Positions 6,481 through 28,400 of a stretch of 60,000 bases of DNA are shown here, one piece after another. The stretch comes from Mobula hypostoma. Taxonomy: Eukaryota. The notes under the pieces are model-generated. The model was given only the letters and a program-made list of their open reading frames with translations. It had not been told where the DNA came from and searched no databases. The stretch spans positions 97,962,001-98,022,000 of the forward strand of contig NC_086107.1 in NCBI RefSeq assembly GCF_963921235.1, written 5' to 3'. How positions within the stretch are numbered: the stretch's first letter is position 1; each line of letters begins with the position of its first letter. The translations under genes were made by a program, and so were the position numbers.

Positions 6481-7146
6481 ACTAAATGACCTACTACTTC
6501 AAGAAATGGCAGCAAATACCTCATTATGGACTATGGCTTGCTGCTAAATACCAGCAATTCTTGACACCCAGAACTCCCATTGAGTTTAGGATTCCCACTA
6601 ATCCACAATCTTTCTAGACTGAATGCCACAGGTTATTTTCCAACTGTAGTCTGACGCCAGGGCTGCACAGAATTGTGATTCTGGGATTCTAATATTTCTG
6701 AAGATCTTTAGAGAGGTCTAACAATTGAAGCAACCCCTGAAAACAAGTTCACTGAAGTAACTGCAGAAGCTGAGTTCTTGATCACATCTGTTAGCAGCAA
6801 ACATGGCAAATGCTGGTTTGGCAGTTCCAGAGGTACCTTTAAAAACACTGTCCAACTATGGAGAAGCTTAAAAGCAGGATTCAGGTCTTTGTGCTCAAGG
6901 TGAGTAATCAATATTTTAAACAGGATTAGATTTTATCTGACACCAAGGCAGCTTTACATATTGTTATTACTACAGTGTTCATTTAAAATATTAATCACTT
7001 TAACTTGAAAGACACTGATAATCTTGTACAATTGCAGTCAATTCCACACAACAGGCCTGCAAGCAAAATGACAGCTCCACTGAAGAAGCATTACCTGGTG
7101 TCTCAGCTGGATTTTATAGTTTCCAAAGTAAAACAAAAGCACTTAC

Positions 7147-7380
7147 CTCTTCCACTTCCTCTTCCATGATCAACAAGCTGTAGCAGCTTTGGATTAATAG
7201 CTTGGCTGGCCTCTTCCAATACCTTGATCAGCTCCCTAGCCTGTTTCACATTGCCTGGTGTGAAGAAGGTGTAGGCTGTGCCTTTATTTGTACTGCGAGC
7301 TGTACGACCAATGCGATGTACGTAGTCTTCAGAGGAATTGGGGTAGTCGTAATTGATGACAAATTTGATGTCTTCCACGT
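7147..7380 (-). CDS. DDX17: DDX17 exon 12 (motif VI)
   Basis: cag|...|gtaagt, 234 nt; [87 protein letters not shown] and [11 protein letters not shown] distinguish DDX17 from DDX5. Final exon not found in the window. Confidence 0.97.
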
Positions 7381-7483
7381 CTGTAAAAGCAGAATTGCAG
7401 TGTGGTGTGGAAAGGTGGGGGATGTGCCAGTTTGAACCAGCACAAGCAGTACACCACAACAGCCAGGTAGAAAGAAGAGTTAG
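7381..7483 (-). ncRNA. miR-3064-like intronic hairpin at the 3' end of DDX17 intron 11 (probably a cis-acting RNA structure)
   Basis: Sense strand has CTGGCTGTTGTGGTGT (7466-7451) and CCACACTGCAA (7405-7395), matching from memory the 5p and 3p arms of mir-3064 at the end of DDX5 intron 11; TGTGGTGT pairs with ACACCACA. Confidence 0.55.
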
Positions 7484-10400
7484 AACAAGATTTAGTACAA
7501 GCACCCCTTACAGTCCATGTTTACAGTATTGGCCTTCCATGCAAAGAGCTTAAACCCACACCATGCTTTGAGCAAAAACCTCACAAACCAAAAGGCAGAA
7601 CACTGAGCACAAAAGTATAAAACAAATTTATTACTGACCCACATTCGGTGTTCAGAACCCTAATACACCCACCTCAAGAAAATGGAAAAACTGAGGCCTG
7701 TTTCATTGAGTAAGCCTGCTCCTCTTTGCTTAAGTTGCAGCTATAAAGTGGAAGACTTATTTGATTTTCATCAAATTCTAACTATTTTACTCACTAGGTG
7801 GATATAAATCTGAGTGAGGAGAAACTTGAGATTGAAATAAGACTTTACAACAGACCGTGCCACCTTTTAAACAATTCCAAGGAATTGTATGTTCATTCTC
7901 ATCTCAAAGTTCAAATACTACCATAACCTTTGCTTTTGTCCTTCCTGTAACAATTGAACTAAATGGCTAAAAAGTTGTTCAGCTTTTCAAATATCTATTT
8001 GCTGCAACAATTAAACCTTTAAAATAGATCAGGAGCAGCTTAGGTCTAAAGCAATACTATGCCGCCAAACTCAACCAGTTTTTGAAGTCAGATGAAGCCA
8101 GTCACATTGTACCACCTCACATCCTGCTTTCCATTATTAAAGTACACAGGGACAATAACCAAGAACCTTTACACATTGAAAATATATCTCAGATGACACA
8201 TGGAAGAACACTTGAAAATATCCTCTGAAATTCCCACTATGAATCTGACAATCCATAAGCTTCAGAATTAAGTTCCAATCTATCCCTGACAACTGACACC
8301 TCCAAGCAACATTCACCAAATTTTATGAACCAAGAATGCATGCTTTAAATCTATGTTTAGACTACCACTCTGGAAAAGAAACCTGTGGGCAAAAATACAG
8401 ATTAGATAAATTCACACATTACATTACTGCCCGAACCTCTATATATATTTTTTTTAAATAAACAGCAGTACACAGGTATTCCACCAATTTACCATATTTA
8501 AAATACTATTTCAATGGACGCAGTTACAAAACGGGGCAATTTTTTTAAAGATCTGGAAGACTCAGAGATAAGGCTACTTTTTCGCACAATGTAGACTAGA
8601 CCAATCTTCACCAAAGGTCCGAAACAAAACCAGTTCAAATTTCAGTGCAAAATAACATTATTTAATTCTGGCCTAAATAGGTAGTAAAGGAATACTCCCT
8701 TCTTGTCTTCTTAATGTAGCATTATTACAAATCTTCAAACATTATGGTTGTCAGGGTTAGAAATTACCATAGCATCACTGGTCCATGAAAATCAGAATCA
8801 ATCTGCACAAAACCAAGGTGGACCATAACTGCTAATACTGGATCTGGACATGCTATTCTCAATACAAAAACTATTATCATTTCAGGGAAATTCATTAACA
8901 CATATCAAAAGAAGTCACCTTTTGTTCAGGTTATGAAAACTAGAAAGATCAAGTGCTGATTTTGAACTGATAATACTGTAAATGGCAGATTACTTGGTAG
9001 CCCAATTGCAAATCCACGTCATACTAAATATAAACCTCTGAATAACCAAGAGGAAAGGTATCAACATCCAAAACCCAGGAGATTAGAACTACAAAAACTA
9101 CAAGAATTTGTTATGGAGCTGAAAGATTGTGATGCATCCCAGCTTAGACTATTACACTGCCACCCACTACAGCACAATCACTACTTGGACCATTATAATG
9201 ACCAGCATTAAAATCTATCCTGATATTTGTGGATGAGGATTCAAAGTTTGTTAATCCAACATCATCTGGGGTTCAGTTTGTAAAATGACAGGGGCGCTGG
9301 AATGCAGAATCCTGATCTTCGATGTAATTCATTCACTGCGCTAAGCTAATGAAATCAGTTTGCTTACCAGTCACTGTATGGTAATTTTTAACCCAACAGA
9401 CAACTCCAGATTTGGCATGTTGTCATTGAAATCCATACTTTAAAGTTGAAATCCAGAATAAATTTCGACTTCCTCCCTTCTGTGTTGAATAGTATTTACC
9501 AGTCCGATGCACACTCCCGTTTCTCTGGTTCTGGCGGTCTCCTTTCGACCTCCGCCATGCGACATGGGACCAGTGGAGCTGGGAGAGCATGCATCGAGCA
9601 TTCCCTTGTAGCGAGAAGTCTCACACGTTGGGATGGATGGCTTTTCTGCAGCCCGACTTTCATGTAGCACCAGAGGACCGCAGTCATTAAATAAGGTCCT
9701 CAAACCCAATCTCTCCAATAACTCCCAGCCCACACTGCATCTATTGCCCAGACTCAAATTATTTTTTTTTTCTTTACAATTTACTGACAAACTATTTTTC
9801 AAGTCTGTTTCTCATTACAAAAATGGGCTCAAGTTTCACTTGCTATTTCTTATTTCATTAGCGAGTGTTTCTATGTTGAATCCCAAGACAGCAATAAACA
9901 AGAGACAGAGAGGAAAAGTGTACATGAGAAATGAAAAATATTCATATTAAAGCACATATTGATATCAAATAGAAATGGACACAAACAAATAATGTACACA
10001 AGATACAGATCTCAGGTAGCCAGCTTTGATCTGTACCCCATTCTAAAAGGGCAACTCCATTTATATCACAGTGAAGCCAAAAGCTTACACCATAATTGTA
10101 ACCTACTGTGCAAAGTTGTTGCCAGCATCCTCTTTAGGTTCTAGTCTCATAATTCACATTCCAGGGTGCATTTTACACTTTAAGCTGTAAGTGATTGCAA
10201 AGCCCAATTATTTTCCCTACTTCTTGGATCACCAAGAACTCCGAAAAAAATACTGGAAATTGAATACAGTGGCACCCTCTTATTGTCTGAACAGTGCAAT
10301 ACCCTAAGAATAAAAGGAAGTGAAAAGAATACAAGAAAATCTACATAACAGCACCTGCGTGCTTCATGGTCAACCTGGCGATAACCCCACTTGGACTCTA

Positions 10401-13400
10401 GACCCTATGTTGGCTGACCTGTGTACTTCAAGTTACAGAATTTTTTAAAGTATCCTATTATTTTGAGAAACAATCAGACTGTCAAAACCAAACAATAACA
10501 ATATTTGGTCATTCATGATGCAATACAAGAGTCTTCTTGTTCACCGTCTCTATTTTTATCCCTGTCCAGTAGCATACTTCCCACTGACTGGCAAGAGATG
10601 GCTCTGATAGTGCAGCTGTGAAGACCTTCTGTGGAGTAACTCCTGCAAATCCAATCCTAGCTGATGATACAAAGGACAGGAAAGTTATTATGTTAAGGAA
10701 TAGGGACAGGAAAAAGTGTGGAACATTAAAGTCTAGATTCTCTCAAGTATCGTTTTGAATAAGTTTTAGCATAATCCTGCAACAGCCTGTATATAACATA
10801 AACTGCATATTTAAAAAAAAAATCTGAGCCCATTGTTAATGCCAGACTGGGAAAAATACTAGGTAACGCATCTGTTGTGGACATTTGATCAAAATGTGTC
10901 GTAGCTATACTAGTTTTTATAATAGTCGCGCCTTCTTGGAAAGTTTCCCATACACAAAGCCCCAGACCCAAATATGCACCTTCAAGGTGGCACCTTGACA
11001 AAGTTGTCCATTGGCTCTCCTATGCCTCAGAACAAATTTTTCCCAGCCTGATGTAATCAATAGGTAACAAGAAACAGACTGACCTAAATGAAATAGTTCT
11101 CAGTTTTGTATCAAATTCAACAGTGTCTAGGCAAGATGCAGAAAGCAGCAATCTACTCATTCCTACCTTCAAACCTTTTTGCAACCCGCTTTTCGGGCAG
11201 TGAAACCTCAGACAGGCCCAAGATGTAACCGGACAAGCCCCGACATGACGTCCTGTGAAGGTGAGGGAGATACTTGGCATGCTTGGCAGTAGGGGTTTCA
11301 CAATAGTTGAGAGTAAACTGTTTGCACCACATTACTCCACTTCATAAGAAACCATACCCCGAAGATTGCAATAGAGCCACAAATCCACAATATTCCAGAT
11401 GGATCAGTTGGCCTCTTGCTGCGAACCAGCGGGGATCAAGTAGTTTCTTCTGTATCCGTACTAAGAATGAGCAAACTGTTCCAACTGGAATTCCCCCATT
11501 AAGGGACATTTTTTCCAAAGATGACATAATCTAAACTTGTAGCCAAATCCTGCAGAGACCAAGGACACAATACCATTAATTCCTATCTTACTGCCTTTGC
11601 CCGTTAAAGGGGAGGTTATTTCGGAACAGTCTGTCCATCTCAGTCTGAAATAGTGGGCCAGTAACAGTCAGTCCATGCAGTCTTCCCATCCACATCAGTG
11701 GCTAGAAAGGTTTATTTCTAGCTCCAAGTCACTTAACAGATTGATTGCAGAACTGGCCTGCCATTTAAATGCAGTGCTCGGTGTGAAACCCCTAATCAGC
11801 AGACATTTCCACACGCCCCTTAGTTTCAGCAAGTAAACCAATTATCAGGTGTGTCAAATTTGAATGAGGGGAGAAAGTCAGATTTCAACAGGGGAATTTT
11901 GGTTCTGCTTTCAATTTTCTGATCTTGGAATTGGCTTGTGCTGGTTTTAAATGAACAGGGCTTCAGATAATGATGCTTGCCAGTAAAATATTAAGATTGT
12001 ACTGGATTCCAGCAGTTAGAAAATTAAAGCAGTATAGTTGTAAAAGAGCTCTTCTGGACCAAACTGGGGACATATCATGTTAAGTTGCATCCGCCTCTTT
12101 AAAAAAGAAAGTTAATCCTAACCCATTTCAACACCAATTATCAGAATACCCACAAATATTGCAGGCTGCGTCAACTATCAGAACTACTCCATGGTAGTCA
12201 CTTACAAATACAAGCTCGTTAATCAAAACTGCTTCAGCAAGTCAGTAAAAAGTATTTTACATGTGCACATATAGCACATTAGTACTGTTGCCAACCGACC
12301 AAATACCAAACTGCCTGCATCTGTCAAGAAAACAAGCATTTCATTTAAATAATACAAACCAATGACATTAGTATATAACAAAAACATGCTTCAAAGGGAA
12401 TGCTTCAATGTCCCTTAATGGGCATCTGAATTGCACCACTGTAGTCTCCAAACTTCTAATATGTATTCCCCTACATTATTGCATATCATACTGTCAACTC
12501 TTACAGTGTCATATACATTACACTGAAAAATTGCTGTTCTGTAGGAAGCAACTGATATCATGATATGGATTCCATTCATTTAATTGAAATTCACAGTTCA
12601 AAAGTAATCTAGATAGGCGTTAACTCCTAATAACTTTATACCTGGCATTAAACTGCCCTGTGGTTAAATATTAAACCTGGTGACCACCCAAAAATAAACA
12701 CTACTAAATACTTATATCTGCTTCTTCCTTAGCGACAAAACCAAGACTCTTATCTAAATCGAGAGCCCACAGTGCACATAGCCATTAATCCAGCCCCATT
12801 GTACACTAATCTGGTATAGATGGGAAAGACTACCTGGAACTAAAATGGATAAAGCTCCACTGGTTCAGTACTACACTATGCTAGTTTGATAGGCAAGTCA
12901 AGATGTTTAAGATATTCTCTTCAAAAGTGGCAGGGAGTGGGGCTTCAATTCCAAGTGAGCAAGCCATGCTGGAAATCCAGTCAGTTGACAAACACATCAT
13001 CTGAAGACCCTATTTATTTTAATGAACCAATCTGCTGCAGAGGTTGAACCAGACAGTGCCAGGGCGAGCTGGATAACGGCAGATGGGGTAAACATTATCC
13101 GTAGACCCCAAATTTTGGACAGCCAGCCCAGTGCATAGGGGTTAAAGGCCCCACATGGTAAGGCTAAGCTTGGTTTATGTAGGTGGCGGTAGATGGATAT
13201 CTCCTCTCCCTCTTGGTGCTCGTTTTGTCATGCCTAGGCCTTGCCGCAGGCCTGTACCTTAATATAAAAACAAAGAGATATTTTAAAAAACAAAATTAAG
13301 CCACTTAGTTAACATACTCAAGATGGTGAGGATATCATGGTTCGTCACTTTAACTACAATCTCTCCCAAGTCAGAAAATTTCAGAGTCTGTTCTGAAAAG

Positions 13401-13430
13401 CATTTTTCTGTAAACAAGTCAAGTACAAAC
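7381..13430 (-). other. DDX17: DDX17 intron 11 (6050 nt), with no recognisable transposons; equivalent to the conserved retained intron of DDX5/DDX17
   Basis: Bounded by the exon 11 donor GTTTGT and the exon 12 acceptor TTACAG; no CR1, SINE or Penelope signatures seen by eye, unlike the other large introns. Confidence 0.85.
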
Positions 13431-13490
13431 CTAAACCTCGAGATGCAACGTCAGTTGCAATAAGGATGGGTGCTTTTCCTGATCGGAATT
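13431..13490 (-). CDS. DDX17: DDX17 exon 11 (motif V)
   Basis: cag|...|gtttgt (weak donor), 60 nt; EFRSGKAPILIATDVASRGL. Confidence 0.96.
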   Translation of the reverse strand, partial: NSDQEKHPSLLQLTLHLEV

Positions 13491-24356: not shown

Positions 24357-26095
24357 CAGAACTGTGCAAAAGTCTTTACATCCTAGATTTTTTAGTTTTG
24401 TTTTAGATGGTTATTTTTTGTCTTCTAATAATACTTTATTGATTCTGAGTGGGAAATTCTTTCGTCACAGCAGCAACATTTAAAAACACACTTAGCAGTG
24501 TGCTTAACTAATAATAAGTGTAAAATCGTAATAATCTAATATGTACCAATGTGCAAAAATGTACAAAATAATAAAGCAGGGACTATGATGTGTGTTCACC
24601 TGTCACACAGAGATGAACTGTTGTATATGCAACATATTCTGCAAAATGCATTTTTTCATTACTGTCACCAGAAAATAGCAAATTTTAGATTTCCAGACAT
24701 TTATTTTTCAAAAAATTAAATGTAAGAGATTTGTTGTATTTCATTAAAGGTAAAGACATGTAGACCACTCTTCAAATAAAAACTTGATTACTTTGTAGGT
24801 ATACAGCCCAGTGCGTGATTAAATAAAGATAACAAACAGGAGTTAATGATCAATGACATAATGAGTTGAATGAACTCAGCTGACTAACTAAAACAGAGAC
24901 TGGTGTAGAAGGAATCAAACTGGACTAAGGACAAGAAAACTAAAATGTGTGGATGTAACAGATGTGACAATTTAACCTTCAAATCATCATGGCAAGAGTG
25001 AGCATAACAAGAAGACACAAGGTTATCCTGCATCAGCAAGGTCTCTCCCAAGCAGAAATTCTGCAGCAGACAGGAGTTTCAAGATGTGTTGTCCAAGCTC
25101 TTCTGAAGAAGCAAAGAAACACGCTAGGTTGAGGATCAGAAACACAGTGGTTGGCCACGGAAACTGAGTGCAGCAAATGAGAGACACATCAAACTGATGT
25201 CCCTTCTAAATGGGAGAAATCCACTGCTATCAGCTCTGAACTCACAGAGACATTGGAACCTAATTACACCCTTTTACAGGCTGGTGAAGTCTTGTCAGAA
25301 GTGGTCTTCATGCAAGATTTGCTGCCAAAAAGCCATTCCTCCAAAATGGAAACAAAGCCTACGAACAAAAGCACAAGGACTGGGGTGCTATGGACTGACA
25401 AAGCAAAATGTGATATTTCTGGCCCAAACAGGAGGCAGTTTGTCTAAAGAAGAACCTGACAGCGCTACATGGACAAGTGTCTGCAGCCAACAATGAGGCT
25501 TGGCGGAGGTTCTTCGCAGGTTTGGGGCTGCATTTCTGCAAATGGAATTGGTGACCTAGTCAGAATGAGTGGAATCCTCAATGCTGAGAAGCACAAACAT
25601 ATTCTTATCCATCACATAATAGCATCATGAAGGGGCCTGATTGGTCCCAACTTATTTTGTAGCAGGACAATGACCCAAACACATGACCAAGGTCATAACA
25701 TTATCTTCAACGAAAAGAACAAGTTCCGCAACAGATACTATGGCCTTCACAGAGCCTTGATCTCAACATCATCAAGGCTGTCTAGGATTATCTGGAGAGA
25801 CAAAAGCAAGCGAGACAAAGTTCACAGAAGAACTGAGGCAAGTTCTCCAAGATGCTTGGATCAACCTAGCAGCTAATTTCCTTATAAAACTGCAGGTTAG
25901 AACTAACAGTGTACCCGAGAGAATTGATGCAGTTTTAAAGGTAAAGGGTGGTCATAGCAAATATTGATTTGATTTAATTTTTTTTCTGTTTACTGCTCTT
26001 TTAGATATTTAGAAACTTCTAATTTCATCAGTTTTGAAATAATCTTCACTTTACATAATTATTTTACAAGTGCTTCAAACTTCTGCACAATACTG
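24357..26095 (+). mobile_element. Decayed Tc1/mariner DNA transposon in DDX17 intron 2
   Basis: TA-flanked TIRs (cagaactgtgcaaaagtctt ... aaacttctgcacaatactg); transposase remnants HQQGLSQAEI..TGVSRC, PRKLSAANERHI, VWGC and QDNDP. Confidence 0.85.
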
Positions 26096-26270
26096 TAGGT
26101 TGGGAATTGTTAGGACCAAGAGCTAAGGTAAAATTAGTAACATTGTGGTTGTGCCAATATCATAACCAAAATTAATACATCATAACCCTAACATCCAATT
26201 CAGCAAGCAGAATAGGCACCATGAATAACAAGCTTTCACTTGGAATATTATACAACAGAATGATACGTAC

Positions 26271-26424
26271 TGGGGTTAATCTAACCACTTCAGGATGCTC
26301 TACGTAAAAATTCTTCTCAAATTTTGGTAGCTCATCCATGTCCCACTTCTTTTTTCTAAGACGTTCCCCAGGCTGTCCAAACTTCTTGCCCAGTGATGAG
26401 CCTCCACCAAACCGTGGCCCATTG
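26271..26424 (-). CDS. DDX17: DDX17 exon 2
   Basis: cag|...|gtacgt, 154 nt; encodes NGPRFGGGSSLGKKFGQPGERLRKKKWDMDELPKFEKNFYVEHPEVVRLTP (ERLRKKKWD and FYVEHPEV are DDX17-type). Confidence 0.95.
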
Positions 26425-27161
26425 CTGTTGCAGAGAAATCAGATCCGTCAGAAACAAGAACACAAACAACACGTGTATGCACTAGTCATATTGATTACTG
26501 AACTAACAGACAGCATTTATTAACCACTAAGAAAACATTTGCAGGTGAGATGTTAAAATACTTCTTCTACAAAGGTTATCTAAGTTGCTGATTATTTCCA
26601 GCATGTTTGCCAGTATCTGCGGTTTTATTTTGAATTAAAAACACATGGCCAAGCAGCATTTGCGGACGGAGATCAGAGACTCCAAGAGGCCTCGTCTTGG
26701 TGATGCAGTACCCAAACCAGCCTCCCAATTTCCGCTCTTTACTGTCAATTACGTCATCACTGCATCAGCTAAAGTCCCGGATGTGAGTGGAATGATAATT
26801 GACAACATCTCAGCCAATCGGTATGAAGAATTCACCAGCAGGCAAACTAACCAGTCAGAGGGGCAGTACACGCCAATCCCTCCAATCCGAGCTGGAAAAC
26901 AACGGAAGGCGGGACCAGCTTCGTCTATTCATGGTGATCGGCACCAACCGGAATGAACCGGCTTACCCAAACGGTGAGCCGCATAAACCAGGCCAAGAGT
27001 CATTACTGTCAGGCACCGATGTTTCGCGGCTAGGGCTACTGATAATTTAGCCTTCAGTCGGGTGTTTCGACAAGGCCCGAGTCTGATGCTGCCTAATTAA
27101 TCGGATTTACCTCGATTCTCGGCCTCACCCCTCTTTAAAGTAGCCCGGTTCCTCGCCTTAC

Positions 27162-27208
27162 CTTCCCCTGTCTCGGCCACGATCGCGTTCTCCGCCAAAA
27201 CCTCTCAT
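27162..27208 (-). CDS. DDX17: DDX17 coding exon 1 (MRGFGGERDRGRDRG)
   Basis: ATG at 27208-27206; 47 nt ending AG|GTAAGG; resembles the p72 N-terminus MRGGGFGDRDRDRDRG; lies in a CpG-rich region; phase 2 joins exon 2 in frame. Confidence 0.9.
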
Positions 27209-27400
27209 TTTCCGTCGATTTTCCTCCTGAAGGAACAAGGAAAGAGCCGTACACGTCCGTCGCTCACCCGACCTCAGCTCCACCCGCCGGAACCCGCTCC
27301 GCCCAGCAACAGTGACGTCAACGGCCGGCGGAGTCGCGCGCCCCAAACGGCATCTCCACCAATCACGGCGCGCCGGGAGGCGGGGGAGGGAGGCAGGTTA
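27209..27400 (-). promoter_or_regulatory. DDX17: DDX17 CpG-rich promoter and 5' UTR
   Basis: Perfect CRE palindrome TGACGTCA 27313-27320, CCAAT 27359-27363, GC boxes (ctccgccc 27297-27304; ggaggcgggg ~27376-27385), CCGGAA 27287-27292, high CpG density. Confidence 0.8.
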
Positions 27401-27454
27401 GTTGTTTGTTCTCCCAGCCCCGGTGAAACCGGAACGTCTGTACTGTACTGTTCT

Positions 27455-27546
27455 GTTTTTCCATAGGTGCTGCCTGGCCTGCTGAGTTCCTGCAGCATTG
27501 TGTGTGTTCTTTGGATTACCAGCATCTGCAGATTTTTCTCTTGTTT
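27455..27546 (+). mobile_element. Penelope pseudo-LTR tail next to the DDX17 promoter
   Basis: ccataggtgctgcctggcctgctgagttcc...ccagcatctgcag, the same motif as the other copies. Confidence 0.7.
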
Positions 27547-27599
27547 GGGAATAGACGTTTAGTGTGACCAGGGGTTGGACATAGCCAAAATGGGAGTAA

Positions 27600-28400
27600 A
27601 GGTCAAACCCCTCTACTCCGGGTTTGTGGAAGGGCTAAAGCCCATGGCTCAGGTCTATGGGTAGCAAGGTCAAATCCTCGTAGCCGAGGTGTAGGAATCA
27701 AAAAGCCCCCTATGCCCCACAGCCCAGGTGTGGGGGAAAAGTCAAAGCCCCATAGCCCAGGTGTATGGGGATGGTCAGTGCCCCACAGCCCAGGTGTACG
27801 GGGATGGTCAGTGCCCCACAGCCCAGGTGTACGTGGCAAGGTCAGTGCCCCACAGCCCAGGTGTATGGGGTGGTCAGTGCCCCACAGCCCAGGTGTGGGG
27901 GAAAAGTCAAAGCCCCACAGCTCAGGTGTACGGGGATGGTCAGTGCCCCACAGCCCAGGTGTACGGGGAAAGGTCGGTGCCCCACAGCCCAGGTGTACGG
28001 GGGAAGGTCAGTGCCCCACAGCCCAGGTGTAGGGGGAAGGTCAGTGCCCCACAGCCCAGGTGTAGGGGGAAGGTCAGTGCCCCACAGCCCAGGTTTACGG
28101 GGAAGGTCAGTGCCCCACAGCCCAGGTGTACTGGGAAGATCAAACCTCATAGACCAGGTATTTGGGTGGGTGGGAGGGGGGAATCGAAGCCTCATAGCCC
28201 AGCTTTAGTTGGAAGGTCAAAGCCCTTAGTCCAGTATACAGGGAAGGTCAAAACCCACTGCTGAGGTGTAGAGGGGAGGTCAAAGCCCCATAACCCAGGG
28301 GTACAGGGAAGGTCAAAGCCCTAGAGCACAGATACAGGGAAAGGTTGAAGCTGGTGAAGTCCATTGTGGGAGGAAAGTTCAAACACCTAGAGCCCTGCTG
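27600..28400. repeat. 32-34 bp minisatellite (consensus ~GGTCAGTGCCCCACAGCCCAGGTGTACGGGGAA); 13 well-preserved units at ~27712-28135 with degenerate flanking units
   Basis: CAGGT(G) recurs at 27725, 27758, 27791, 27824, 27858, 27890, 27923, 27956, 27990, 28024, 28057, 28090 and 28123. Confidence 0.95.

Follow-up and report, generated by a model that had tools for sequence, protein, structure and literature searches.

The 3' end of intron 11 of the helicase gene DDX17 in Mobula hypostoma may hold a structured splice-site module that brings a distal branch site to the acceptor AG of a retained intron, a reading to which we give a probability of about 0.45. We worked on a window of 60,000 nucleotides (nt), NC_086107.1 97,962,001-98,022,000; feature coordinates are window positions, DDX17 lies on the minus strand, and the exon and intron numbers 12 and 11 are taken from homology to intron 11 of human DDX5. 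In order, the module consists of CTAAC at -99, a 13-nt pyrimidine tract, a 67-nt two-tier hairpin, a 16-nt U-rich linker and the only AG. By sequence comparison, the hairpin is a diverged paralogue of the mir-3064 hairpin of DDX5, and the element more likely tunes the splicing of intron 11 than makes a microRNA.

The sequence motifs had been picked out in an earlier note on this DNA, and on reading the minus strand we located all of them at the positions given there. The layout proposed in that note omitted a 14-nt C-rich spacer at 7422-7409, which gives the structure a 6 x 14 nt internal loop; its motifs otherwise stand. The features of the intron and its acceptor are as follows.

7381..13433, minus strand: DDX17 intron 11, 6053 nt, phase 1, with donor G/GTTTGT at 13433 and acceptor AG at 7382-7381 (from the exon 11 end, the frame and RNA contigs).
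7147..7380, minus strand: exon 12, with helicase motif VI and DDX17-type residues; an exon contig covers 7146-7382 with spliced ends on both sides.
7538..7566, minus strand: GCAUG abutting the GU-rich GUGUGGGUUU (7566-7552), and UGCAUG (7543-7538); from sequence, with binding suggested by motif meaning only.
7475..7501, minus strand: tandem duplication of 12 nt, 2.2 copies, 86% matches (Tandem Repeats Finder).
7497-7491, minus strand: TACTAAA, branch-like (sequence).
7485-7479, minus strand: TTCTAAC, candidate branch site, with putative branch A at 7480, 99 nt from the G of the AG (called by motif, its use presumed).
7478-7466, minus strand: pyrimidine tract TCTTCTTTCTACC, 13 nt, directly 3' of the branch site (sequence; aligns with the DDX5 tract).
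7466-7451, minus strand: 5' arm CTGGCTGTTGTGGTGT, 16 nt, GU-rich (sequence, and comparison with miR-3064-5p and DDX5).
7444-7423, minus strand: inner hairpin of 9 base pairs, two of them G-U, with loop UCAA (folding).
7422-7409, minus strand: C-rich spacer UCCCCCACCUUUCC, 14 nt, predicted to be unpaired (sequence, folding).
7408-7395, minus strand: 3' arm ACACCACACTGCAA, CA-rich (sequence); its core CCACACTGCAA at 7405-7395 matches mammalian miR-3064-3p.
7394-7381, minus strand: U-rich linker UUCUGCUUUUAC with the acceptor AG at 7382-7381 (sequence, splice junction).

The two branch-like motifs, TACTAAA and TTCTAAC, are the two copies of the 12-nt tandem duplication, and six unpaired bases separate the 5' arm from the inner hairpin. 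The acceptor end of the intron reads TTTTACAG, with 7381 as its last base and a U-rich tract of 12 nt directly before the AG. An AG-free stretch of ~120 nt had been claimed for this region; we measured the zone at 124 nt. AG-to-AG gaps of at least 125 nt number 5 of 4010 on the minus strand of the window, where the median gap is 10, and 222 of 20000 shuffles of the 124-nt segment were free of AG. Within the zone yUnAy is matched by CTAAC at -99 and TTTAC at -3 only, with no match from -98 to -4.

The acceptor, which had been assigned to exon 12 of DDX17, proved to be used in spliced RNA contigs. The compared stretch is present in 18 runs, and we examined the contigs of four of these (X2, X6, X13 and X15), for which the listing gives no joint inside that stretch. 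Contigs connect exon 11, which ends at 13434 by sequence and reading frame, to position 7380: past 7382 they continue with the reverse-complemented end of exon 11, and ahead of 7146 with sequence from the next exon. Because the contigs carry these spliced ends, we infer both that the runs, none of which is labelled as RNA, are RNA and that the acceptor is in use.

The same contigs show that intron 11 is poorly spliced. In all four runs (4/4) intron 11 contigs were joined to exon 12, and by the reading frame such retention adds 16 codons followed by a stop. The depths below are rough, with one mean for each contig.

X2: intron 11 unspliced 68.4 versus spliced 317.9; intron 12 unspliced 7.24 versus spliced 414.4. 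One contig of 6109 nt, about the whole of intron 11, is joined to exon 12.
X6: intron 11 unspliced 745.8 versus spliced 776.8; intron 12 unspliced 18.7 versus spliced 1464.8.
X15: intron 11 unspliced 9.8 versus spliced 11.8.
X13: one contig passes from exon 12 through the acceptor into intron 11.

On these rough contig depths, the unspliced share of both branches was 18-49% for intron 11 as against 1.3-1.7% for intron 12, a 10- to 40-fold contrast inside a run. The hairpin of DDX5 was likewise found in contigs joined to the DDX5 exon (X2, 1204 nt, depth 76.3; X15, 1339 nt, depth 32.9), which argues that intron 11 of DDX5 is retained too. Retained introns of Ddx5 and Ddx17 are on record from vertebrates at large (PMC5688624), in agreement with the contigs here.

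The folding energy of the element is unremarkable alone, and it is the homology to the end of DDX5 intron 11 that places it above chance. In the same genome DDX5 (locus L002) has an intron 11 of ~1.28 kilobases at the same position and in the same phase, and the end of this intron carries, in order, CTAAC, a pyrimidine tract, the 5' arm, a shorter middle, the common 3' core and TTTACAG. The CTAAC and tract of DDX17 align with those of DDX5, and the alignment score of the last 120 nt of the two introns was attained by 1 of 2000 shuffles. The 5' arms of the two genes are identical at 15 of 16 positions, and their flanking exons are 78% identical. The DDX17 5' arm also equals nt 2-17 of mammalian miR-3064-5p (16/16 identical), and 11 nt of the 3' arm are identical to the 3p core. 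The inner hairpin and C-rich spacer form an extra middle section of DDX17 that is without counterpart in DDX5. Since the DDX5 of the same genome has the element at the same place, an origin before the DDX5/DDX17 split, which the earlier note had proposed, is the simplest reading.

The DDX5 hairpin (L002 1643-1705; -17.7 kcal/mol, z -2.14) has its stem end 8 nt from the AG and scores 48.8 bits (E 1.7e-10) on the Rfam mir-3064 model (RF03840), below the gathering score of 76 bits. For the DDX17 hairpin RF03840 gave no match at E<=10 in 7300-7600; we therefore do not count it as a member of that family, and on account of its geometry we do not count it as a mirtron. The sole Rfam matches in 7300-7600 at E<=10, snoR35 and REN-SRE, were taken as chance, and at gathering score no family matched anywhere in the window. 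A genome pattern search for both arms gave four matches, two of them besides DDX17 and DDX5. These two (L088 1501-1562 and L090 1501-1562; C1:255529157-255529218 and C63:36153022-36153083), with motifs 38 nt apart, lie in a high-copy interspersed repeat (3651 first-look candidates; 40 scored, at 89-100% identity) and were taken as chance because no DDX exon adjoins either copy.

The arms of mir-3064 and its place at the 3' end of DDX5 intron 11 had been given in the earlier note, and both agree with the supplement of Wen et al. 2015 and with PMC4807562, which places human mir-3064 in DDX5 intron 11. Wen et al. (2015, PMC4556696) class hsa- and mmu-mir-3064 among the '5p-tailed mirtrons', their DDX5 host introns being 1236 and 1265 nt long, with 2840 reads in human (2536 from 5p) and 4852 in mouse (4460 from 5p), and describe a saddle-shaped conservation profile; the hairpin is also reported from chicken (PMC6478348). 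In 12 of the 14 supplementary files of that study, which cover human and mouse only, DDX17 has 0 occurrences in the mirtron tables (PMC4556696). We met no description of a DDX17 copy of the hairpin in the literature searched, a search that did not take in Moore et al. 2011 (RNA 17:555).

In the folding predictions, the outer stem consists of 11 pairs, is interrupted by one mismatch and one bulge, and is followed by the 6x14 internal loop. The predicted hairpin spans 7463-7397 (67 nt), so that pairing ends at 7397, or at 7394 if the arms take the DDX5-like register; relative to that register, the pairing of the DDX17 arms is offset by 3 nt (-22.4 versus -18.4 kcal/mol). In a 270-nt context the predicted pair probability of the inner stem averages 0.98, and that of the 7-base-pair core of the outer stem is 0.84-0.91. 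The order of CTAAC or CTTAC, tract, hairpin and AG is common to three introns, those of the two paralogs and of a metagenome locus, L056, which we describe below; their folded paths, from branch motif to AG, were counted by hand from the predicted folds.

DDX17 of the window: AG-free zone 124 nt, branch motif at -99, folded path ~34 nt.
DDX5 of the same genome: AG-free zone 105 nt, branch motif at -73, folded path ~29 nt.
L056: AG-free zone 124 nt, branch motif at -97, folded path ~43 nt.

We also compared the region among close relatives, in which intron divergence is ~5% at most. Organism B has 15 differences in all and none in 7242-7579, and organism G has none in 7242-7579 among the differences listed. 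Organism F, for which 17 further differences lie outside those listed, has two differences in the 186 nt of 7381-7566 as against at least 24 in the next 534 nt upstream. Of the 24 rows of differences outside the listing, it is unlikely that any falls in 7130-7620, because the listed differences reproduce the k-mer shares of 0.57, 0.76 and 0.82. Organism F differs at 7567 and 7569 and then no more until 7429, where the change (sense U7429>C) replaces the G7438-U7429 wobble within the inner stem by a G-C pair and so keeps the pairing; its other change, sense A7416>U, falls within the spacer, which is unpaired. On its upstream side the invariant block begins with the GCAUG that abuts the GU-rich run (7566-7552). 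Multipart modules of Rbfox and LASR have been described; DDX5 and hnRNP M are both components of LASR, and the sites bound by hnRNP M are GUGUGU and GUUGUU (PMC11874969); the arrangement of GCAUG, GU-rich run and UGCAUG at 7538-7566 resembles these modules by motif only. By eye, we found no GCAUG motif in the last 300 nt of DDX5 intron 11 in the same genome.

More distant loci came from a metagenome scan (80 loci) and a genome contig set (5 distant loci), and a viral contig set gave none. An intron at the same position (phase 1, before the DV.D[IV]K motif) is present in 42 of the 47 loci with the exon motif, mostly from non-vertebrate eukaryotes, and the other five look like cDNA. This is in line with the 'conserved intron' described for the DBP2/DDX5 family. 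Intron 11 occupies that position, which has been kept between yeast DBP2 and human DDX5. Among 35 distinct introns at that position in the metagenome loci, the AG-free zone has a median of 27 nt and reaches 70 nt or more in 8, and the fold z is -2 or lower in 2; these values indicate that the long AG-free zone with a hairpin is special to the copies described here and not general.

The only other vertebrate-like DDX17 locus was L003, which has a 93% identical exon and a protein that we take to be mammal-like; the rest of the 80 metagenome loci are at most 76% identical or are partial. The L003 intron carries TTACTAAC at -132, together with a long tract of pyrimidines and 162 nt of C/U-rich sequence free of AG, and thus retains a distal branch site and AG-free zone despite the loss of the arms. 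The CCCCACCTTTC at the C-rich spacer of DDX17 recurs in L003, although taken singly this match lacks significance. The earlier note had expected the arms to be conserved in other DDX17 orthologs. That expectation fails in L003, whereas in the three close relatives the region is nearly unchanged. A separate feature of L003 is a long, nearly perfect hairpin at 1186-1256, ~350 nt 3' of the exon, with weak chance Rfam matches to plant microRNA families at 20-22 bits.

The L056 exon is identical to those of the cDNA-like loci L012 and L014, and its protein ends in an RGG-rich tail unlike vertebrate DDX5/DDX17. Its intron has CTTAC at -97, an AG-free zone of 124 nt and a hairpin of -20.8 kcal/mol (z -2.5) whose 5' arm matches at 14 of 15 positions, with one G-C to A-U double change in the stem. 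In a plain alignment of L056 with DDX5 the score was matched by 58 of 2000 shuffles, and Rfam mir-3064 matched neither L056 nor L003. We built two covariance models, R1 from the three hairpins and R2 from the DDX17 and DDX5 paralogs. Over 67 sources R1 found its own three training sequences only, and R2, over 72 sources, placed L056 third of 25 matches (12.4 bits, E 0.9); neither model matched the L003 intron end. From these sequence comparisons, homology of L056 to the mir-3064-like hairpins is only suggestive.

In the mechanism we favour, the U2 small nuclear ribonucleoprotein and U2AF would bind the distal CTAAC and its tract, and the folded hairpin would remove 67 nt from the path, so that the AG would lie ~34 nt from the branch point and not 99. 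The stability or occupancy of the hairpin would then set the rate of the second step at this AG, giving a slow, retained intron and a premature stop. By analogy with the precedents, we hypothesize that DDX5 or DDX17 protein might melt the 11-base-pair outer stem; splicing would then fall, completing a negative feedback loop. When human Ddx5 is overexpressed, the levels of Ddx17 and of endogenous Ddx5 drop (PMC3763533). In yeast, expression is limited by the dbp2 intron at this position, which may be subject to autoregulation (PMC4695336), and in plants the pre-mRNA of DRH1 has a structure at an alternative 3' splice site that is unwound by DRH1 itself (bioRxiv 10.64898/2026.01.23.701338). DDX17 unwinding needs a single-stranded flank, and its preferred motif is RCAYCH (PMC6953907), which occurs in the hairpin as ACAUCC at 7425-7420, overlapping the start of the spacer, and as ACACCA at 7408-7403. 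A stronger form of this proposal would make the hairpin the vertebrate form of an old helicase sensor in the 'DBP2 intron': DDX5/DDX17 would land on the C-rich spacer and the RCAYCH motifs (7425-7420, 7408-7403) and melt the outer stem, lengthening the path to the AG from ~34 to 99 nt, so that the intron would be detained and the stop exposed, with direct negative feedback and cross-regulation of the paralogs, and with the DDX5 mir-3064 as a later exaptation. We regard this fuller version as distinctly unlikely. If L056 is truly homologous, such a helicase sensor would predate vertebrates.

Several results weigh against a splice-site structure. In general, the architecture alone cannot separate a splicing role from a microRNA role, because any hairpin that abuts an acceptor forces a distal branch and an AG-free zone. 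The branch could also be a weak, proximal one within the 3' arm or linker. The letter-for-letter conservation of the 5' arm (16/16) is better explained by something that reads the sequence itself, be it a protein or Argonaute, than by pairing alone. L003 has neither arms nor outer stem and splices its exon without that stem. The predicted folds are ordinary: the 130 nt at the intron end have a fold z of -0.25, with 78 of 200 shuffles folding as well, and the 77-nt hairpin, at -22.4 kcal/mol, has a z of -1.59, with 13 of 200 shuffles folding as well. Covariation among the three sequences amounts to one compensatory pair, contributed by L056 and attained by 170 of 500 shuffles. RCAYCH is only marginally enriched, its count being attained by 781 of 20000 shuffles, with at least two motifs in 5.8% of 130-nt windows, and the motif is absent from DDX5 of the same genome and from L056. 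The contig depths on which the retention figures rest are rough, at one mean per contig. Furthermore, the effect of human Ddx5 on Ddx17 was ascribed to nonsense-mediated decay and needed no ATP hydrolysis (PMC3763533).

The hairpin could instead be a repressor and not a bridge, if a weak proximal branch and tract in the 3' arm or linker were hidden by pairing or by proteins, with retention as the result and the arms acting primarily as protein sites. Candidate repressors would be hnRNP M within LASR, the DDX17 core on RCAYCH, and hnRNP L, PCBP or PTB, which we presume to be putative binders of the arms or spacer. This explanation is rather unlikely in our view. In its favour are the high retention of intron 11, an arm sequence conserved exactly and not by covariation, the two RCAYCH motifs in the hairpin, the 12-nt U-rich tract before the AG, and the C/U-rich tract that L003 keeps and expands while it loses the stem. 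The GCAUG abutting the GU-rich run at 7566-7552 is part of the invariant block, and LASR has DDX5 and hnRNP M (PMC11874969). However, a proximal branch finds no yUnAy to use from -98 to -4, and the strong CTAAC and tract are conserved in position in both paralogs. The GCAUG motifs are not in the last 300 nt of same-genome DDX5 intron 11 (by eye), and the enrichment of RCAYCH is marginal and not conserved.

A working microRNA precursor would be a DDX17-hosted mir-3064 paralogue that yields a miR-3064-5p-like RNA with the same seed, and the splice architecture would be a by-product. The 5' arm indeed equals miR-3064-5p nt 2-17, seed included, and 5p is the dominant arm in mammals (PMC4556696). 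Letter-for-letter conservation of one arm is typical of mature microRNAs, a UGUG lies 22 nt after the arm start, and the same-genome DDX5 copy reaches 48.8 bits on Rfam mir-3064. MicroRNA precursors hold a continuous duplex of ~16 or more pairs between their 22-nt arms. The DDX17 outer stem falls short of this at 11 pairs: 11 of the ~22 would-be 5p positions are paired, and a 6x14 loop and second hairpin take the place of the upper stem. A 5'-tailed mirtron is excluded because the stem ends 16 nt before the AG. L003 is without the arms, and the mirtron tables of Wen et al. (12 of 14 files, human and mouse) hold no DDX17 entry. The statement 'rather than a microRNA' in the earlier note thus stands as a matter of geometry only (no RF03840 match at E<=10, 11 outer pairs), and we consider a working precursor improbable. 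We give similarly little credence to a decaying relic of an ancestral mir-3064-like hairpin that has no present role and is similar by chance retention together with 3' splice-site constraint. The rebuilt middle, the shifted pairing register, the loss of the arms in L003 and the ordinary folding z-scores would all fit decay, and the compared relatives, at ~5% intron divergence at most, are close. Yet the arms are identical at 15/16 and 16/16 positions as against 78% in the flanking exon of the paralogs, organism F has 2 differences in 186 nt (7381-7566) against at least 24 in the next 534 nt, and one of these two changes keeps the pairing. A splicing role is favoured because arms, pairing, branch site and AG-free zone all persist in the DDX17 copy although its microRNA geometry is gone, and because in L003 the distal architecture has outlasted the arms.

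Gooding et al. 2006, Meyer et al. 2011 and Lin et al. 2016 have reportedly described introns whose branch points lie far upstream of long AG-exclusion zones, and RNA structure that shortens the distance from branch to AG. DDX17 intron 11 resembles these in its 124-nt AG-free zone with a far-upstream branch consensus and tract, and in a predicted stable fold before the AG that would bring the path into the usual range (~34 nt effective). It differs in that its candidate branch site is assigned by motif and in that the intervening structure is an old, paralog-shared element also catalogued as a microRNA. Yeast is said to have an autoregulatory DBP2 intron (Barta and Iggo 1995). Intron 11 shares with the DBP2/dbp2 intron of yeasts (PMC4695336) its position in the orthologous helicase gene and its poor splicing, seen here for DDX17 as retention; a poorly spliced, retained intron is also what helicase autoregulation would entail. 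The S. pombe mechanism uses Mmi1 and exosome decay (PMC4695336), and the likeness to DDX17 is by position and retention only. The structured RNA of plant DRH1/RH46 (bioRxiv 10.64898/2026.01.23.701338) is similar as a 3' splice-site structure in the pre-mRNA of a DDX5-type helicase with a proposed self-unwound feedback. That element masks an alternative 3' splice site, whereas the DDX17 structure contains no AG; the likeness drawn here is one of architecture.

Compared with mir-3064 itself (RF03840; hsa-, mmu- and gga-mir-3064), the DDX17 element is alike in intron position, in 5' arm nt 2-17 and in 11 nt of the 3' arm, and, with respect to the copy in same-genome DDX5, in the upstream CTAAC and tract. 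It differs in its host gene, in ~45 nt of different middle (the inner hairpin and C-rich spacer), in the 3-nt register shift, in a stem that ends 16 nt before the AG, and in having no RF03840 match where the DDX5 copy scores 48.8 bits. Like 5'-tailed mirtrons (Wen et al. 2015, PMC4556696; Ladewig 2012 via PMC4807562) it has its hairpin where a long intron ends, downstream of the branch site, but the 3' arm of DDX17 does not reach the acceptor. For mir-3064, mutation of the splice site did not lower the microRNA (MUT/WT 173%; PMC4807562). Because the DDX17 copy keeps the arms and has lost the microRNA-like geometry, it offers a natural experiment that separates the splicing and microRNA roles. 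DDX5 and DDX17 are dosage-sensitive helicases that regulate each other and themselves (PMC3763533), and the role in animals of this intron, conserved from yeast to man, was never settled (PMC4695336). If the mir-3064 hairpin is one copy of a splice-site structure that already existed when DDX5 and DDX17 split, the 'microRNA' annotation may hide a splicing control element, and helicase autoregulation would be testable by simple stem mutants.

Two further blocks of intron 11 are shared between the paralogs. Near the 5' end of the intron, 13201-13267 (minus strand) is common to DDX17 and DDX5 intron 11 (53/70 identical, E 2e-7), with a 15-nt identical core GGCCTAGGCATGACA and the 5' splice-site-like AAGGTACAG (AAGGTGCAG in DDX5); this block could be an alternative or decoy donor. 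A poison exon has been reported for human DDX17. The second block, at 9726-9759 (minus strand) in mid intron 11, is 28/34 identical (E 4e-4) and contains ATGCAGTGTGG. Elsewhere in the window, 26001-28000 is the sole GC-rich segment (GC 0.497 versus ~0.39 elsewhere). On the minus strand this segment precedes the first helicase exons, and it is a candidate for the promoter or first exon of DDX17.

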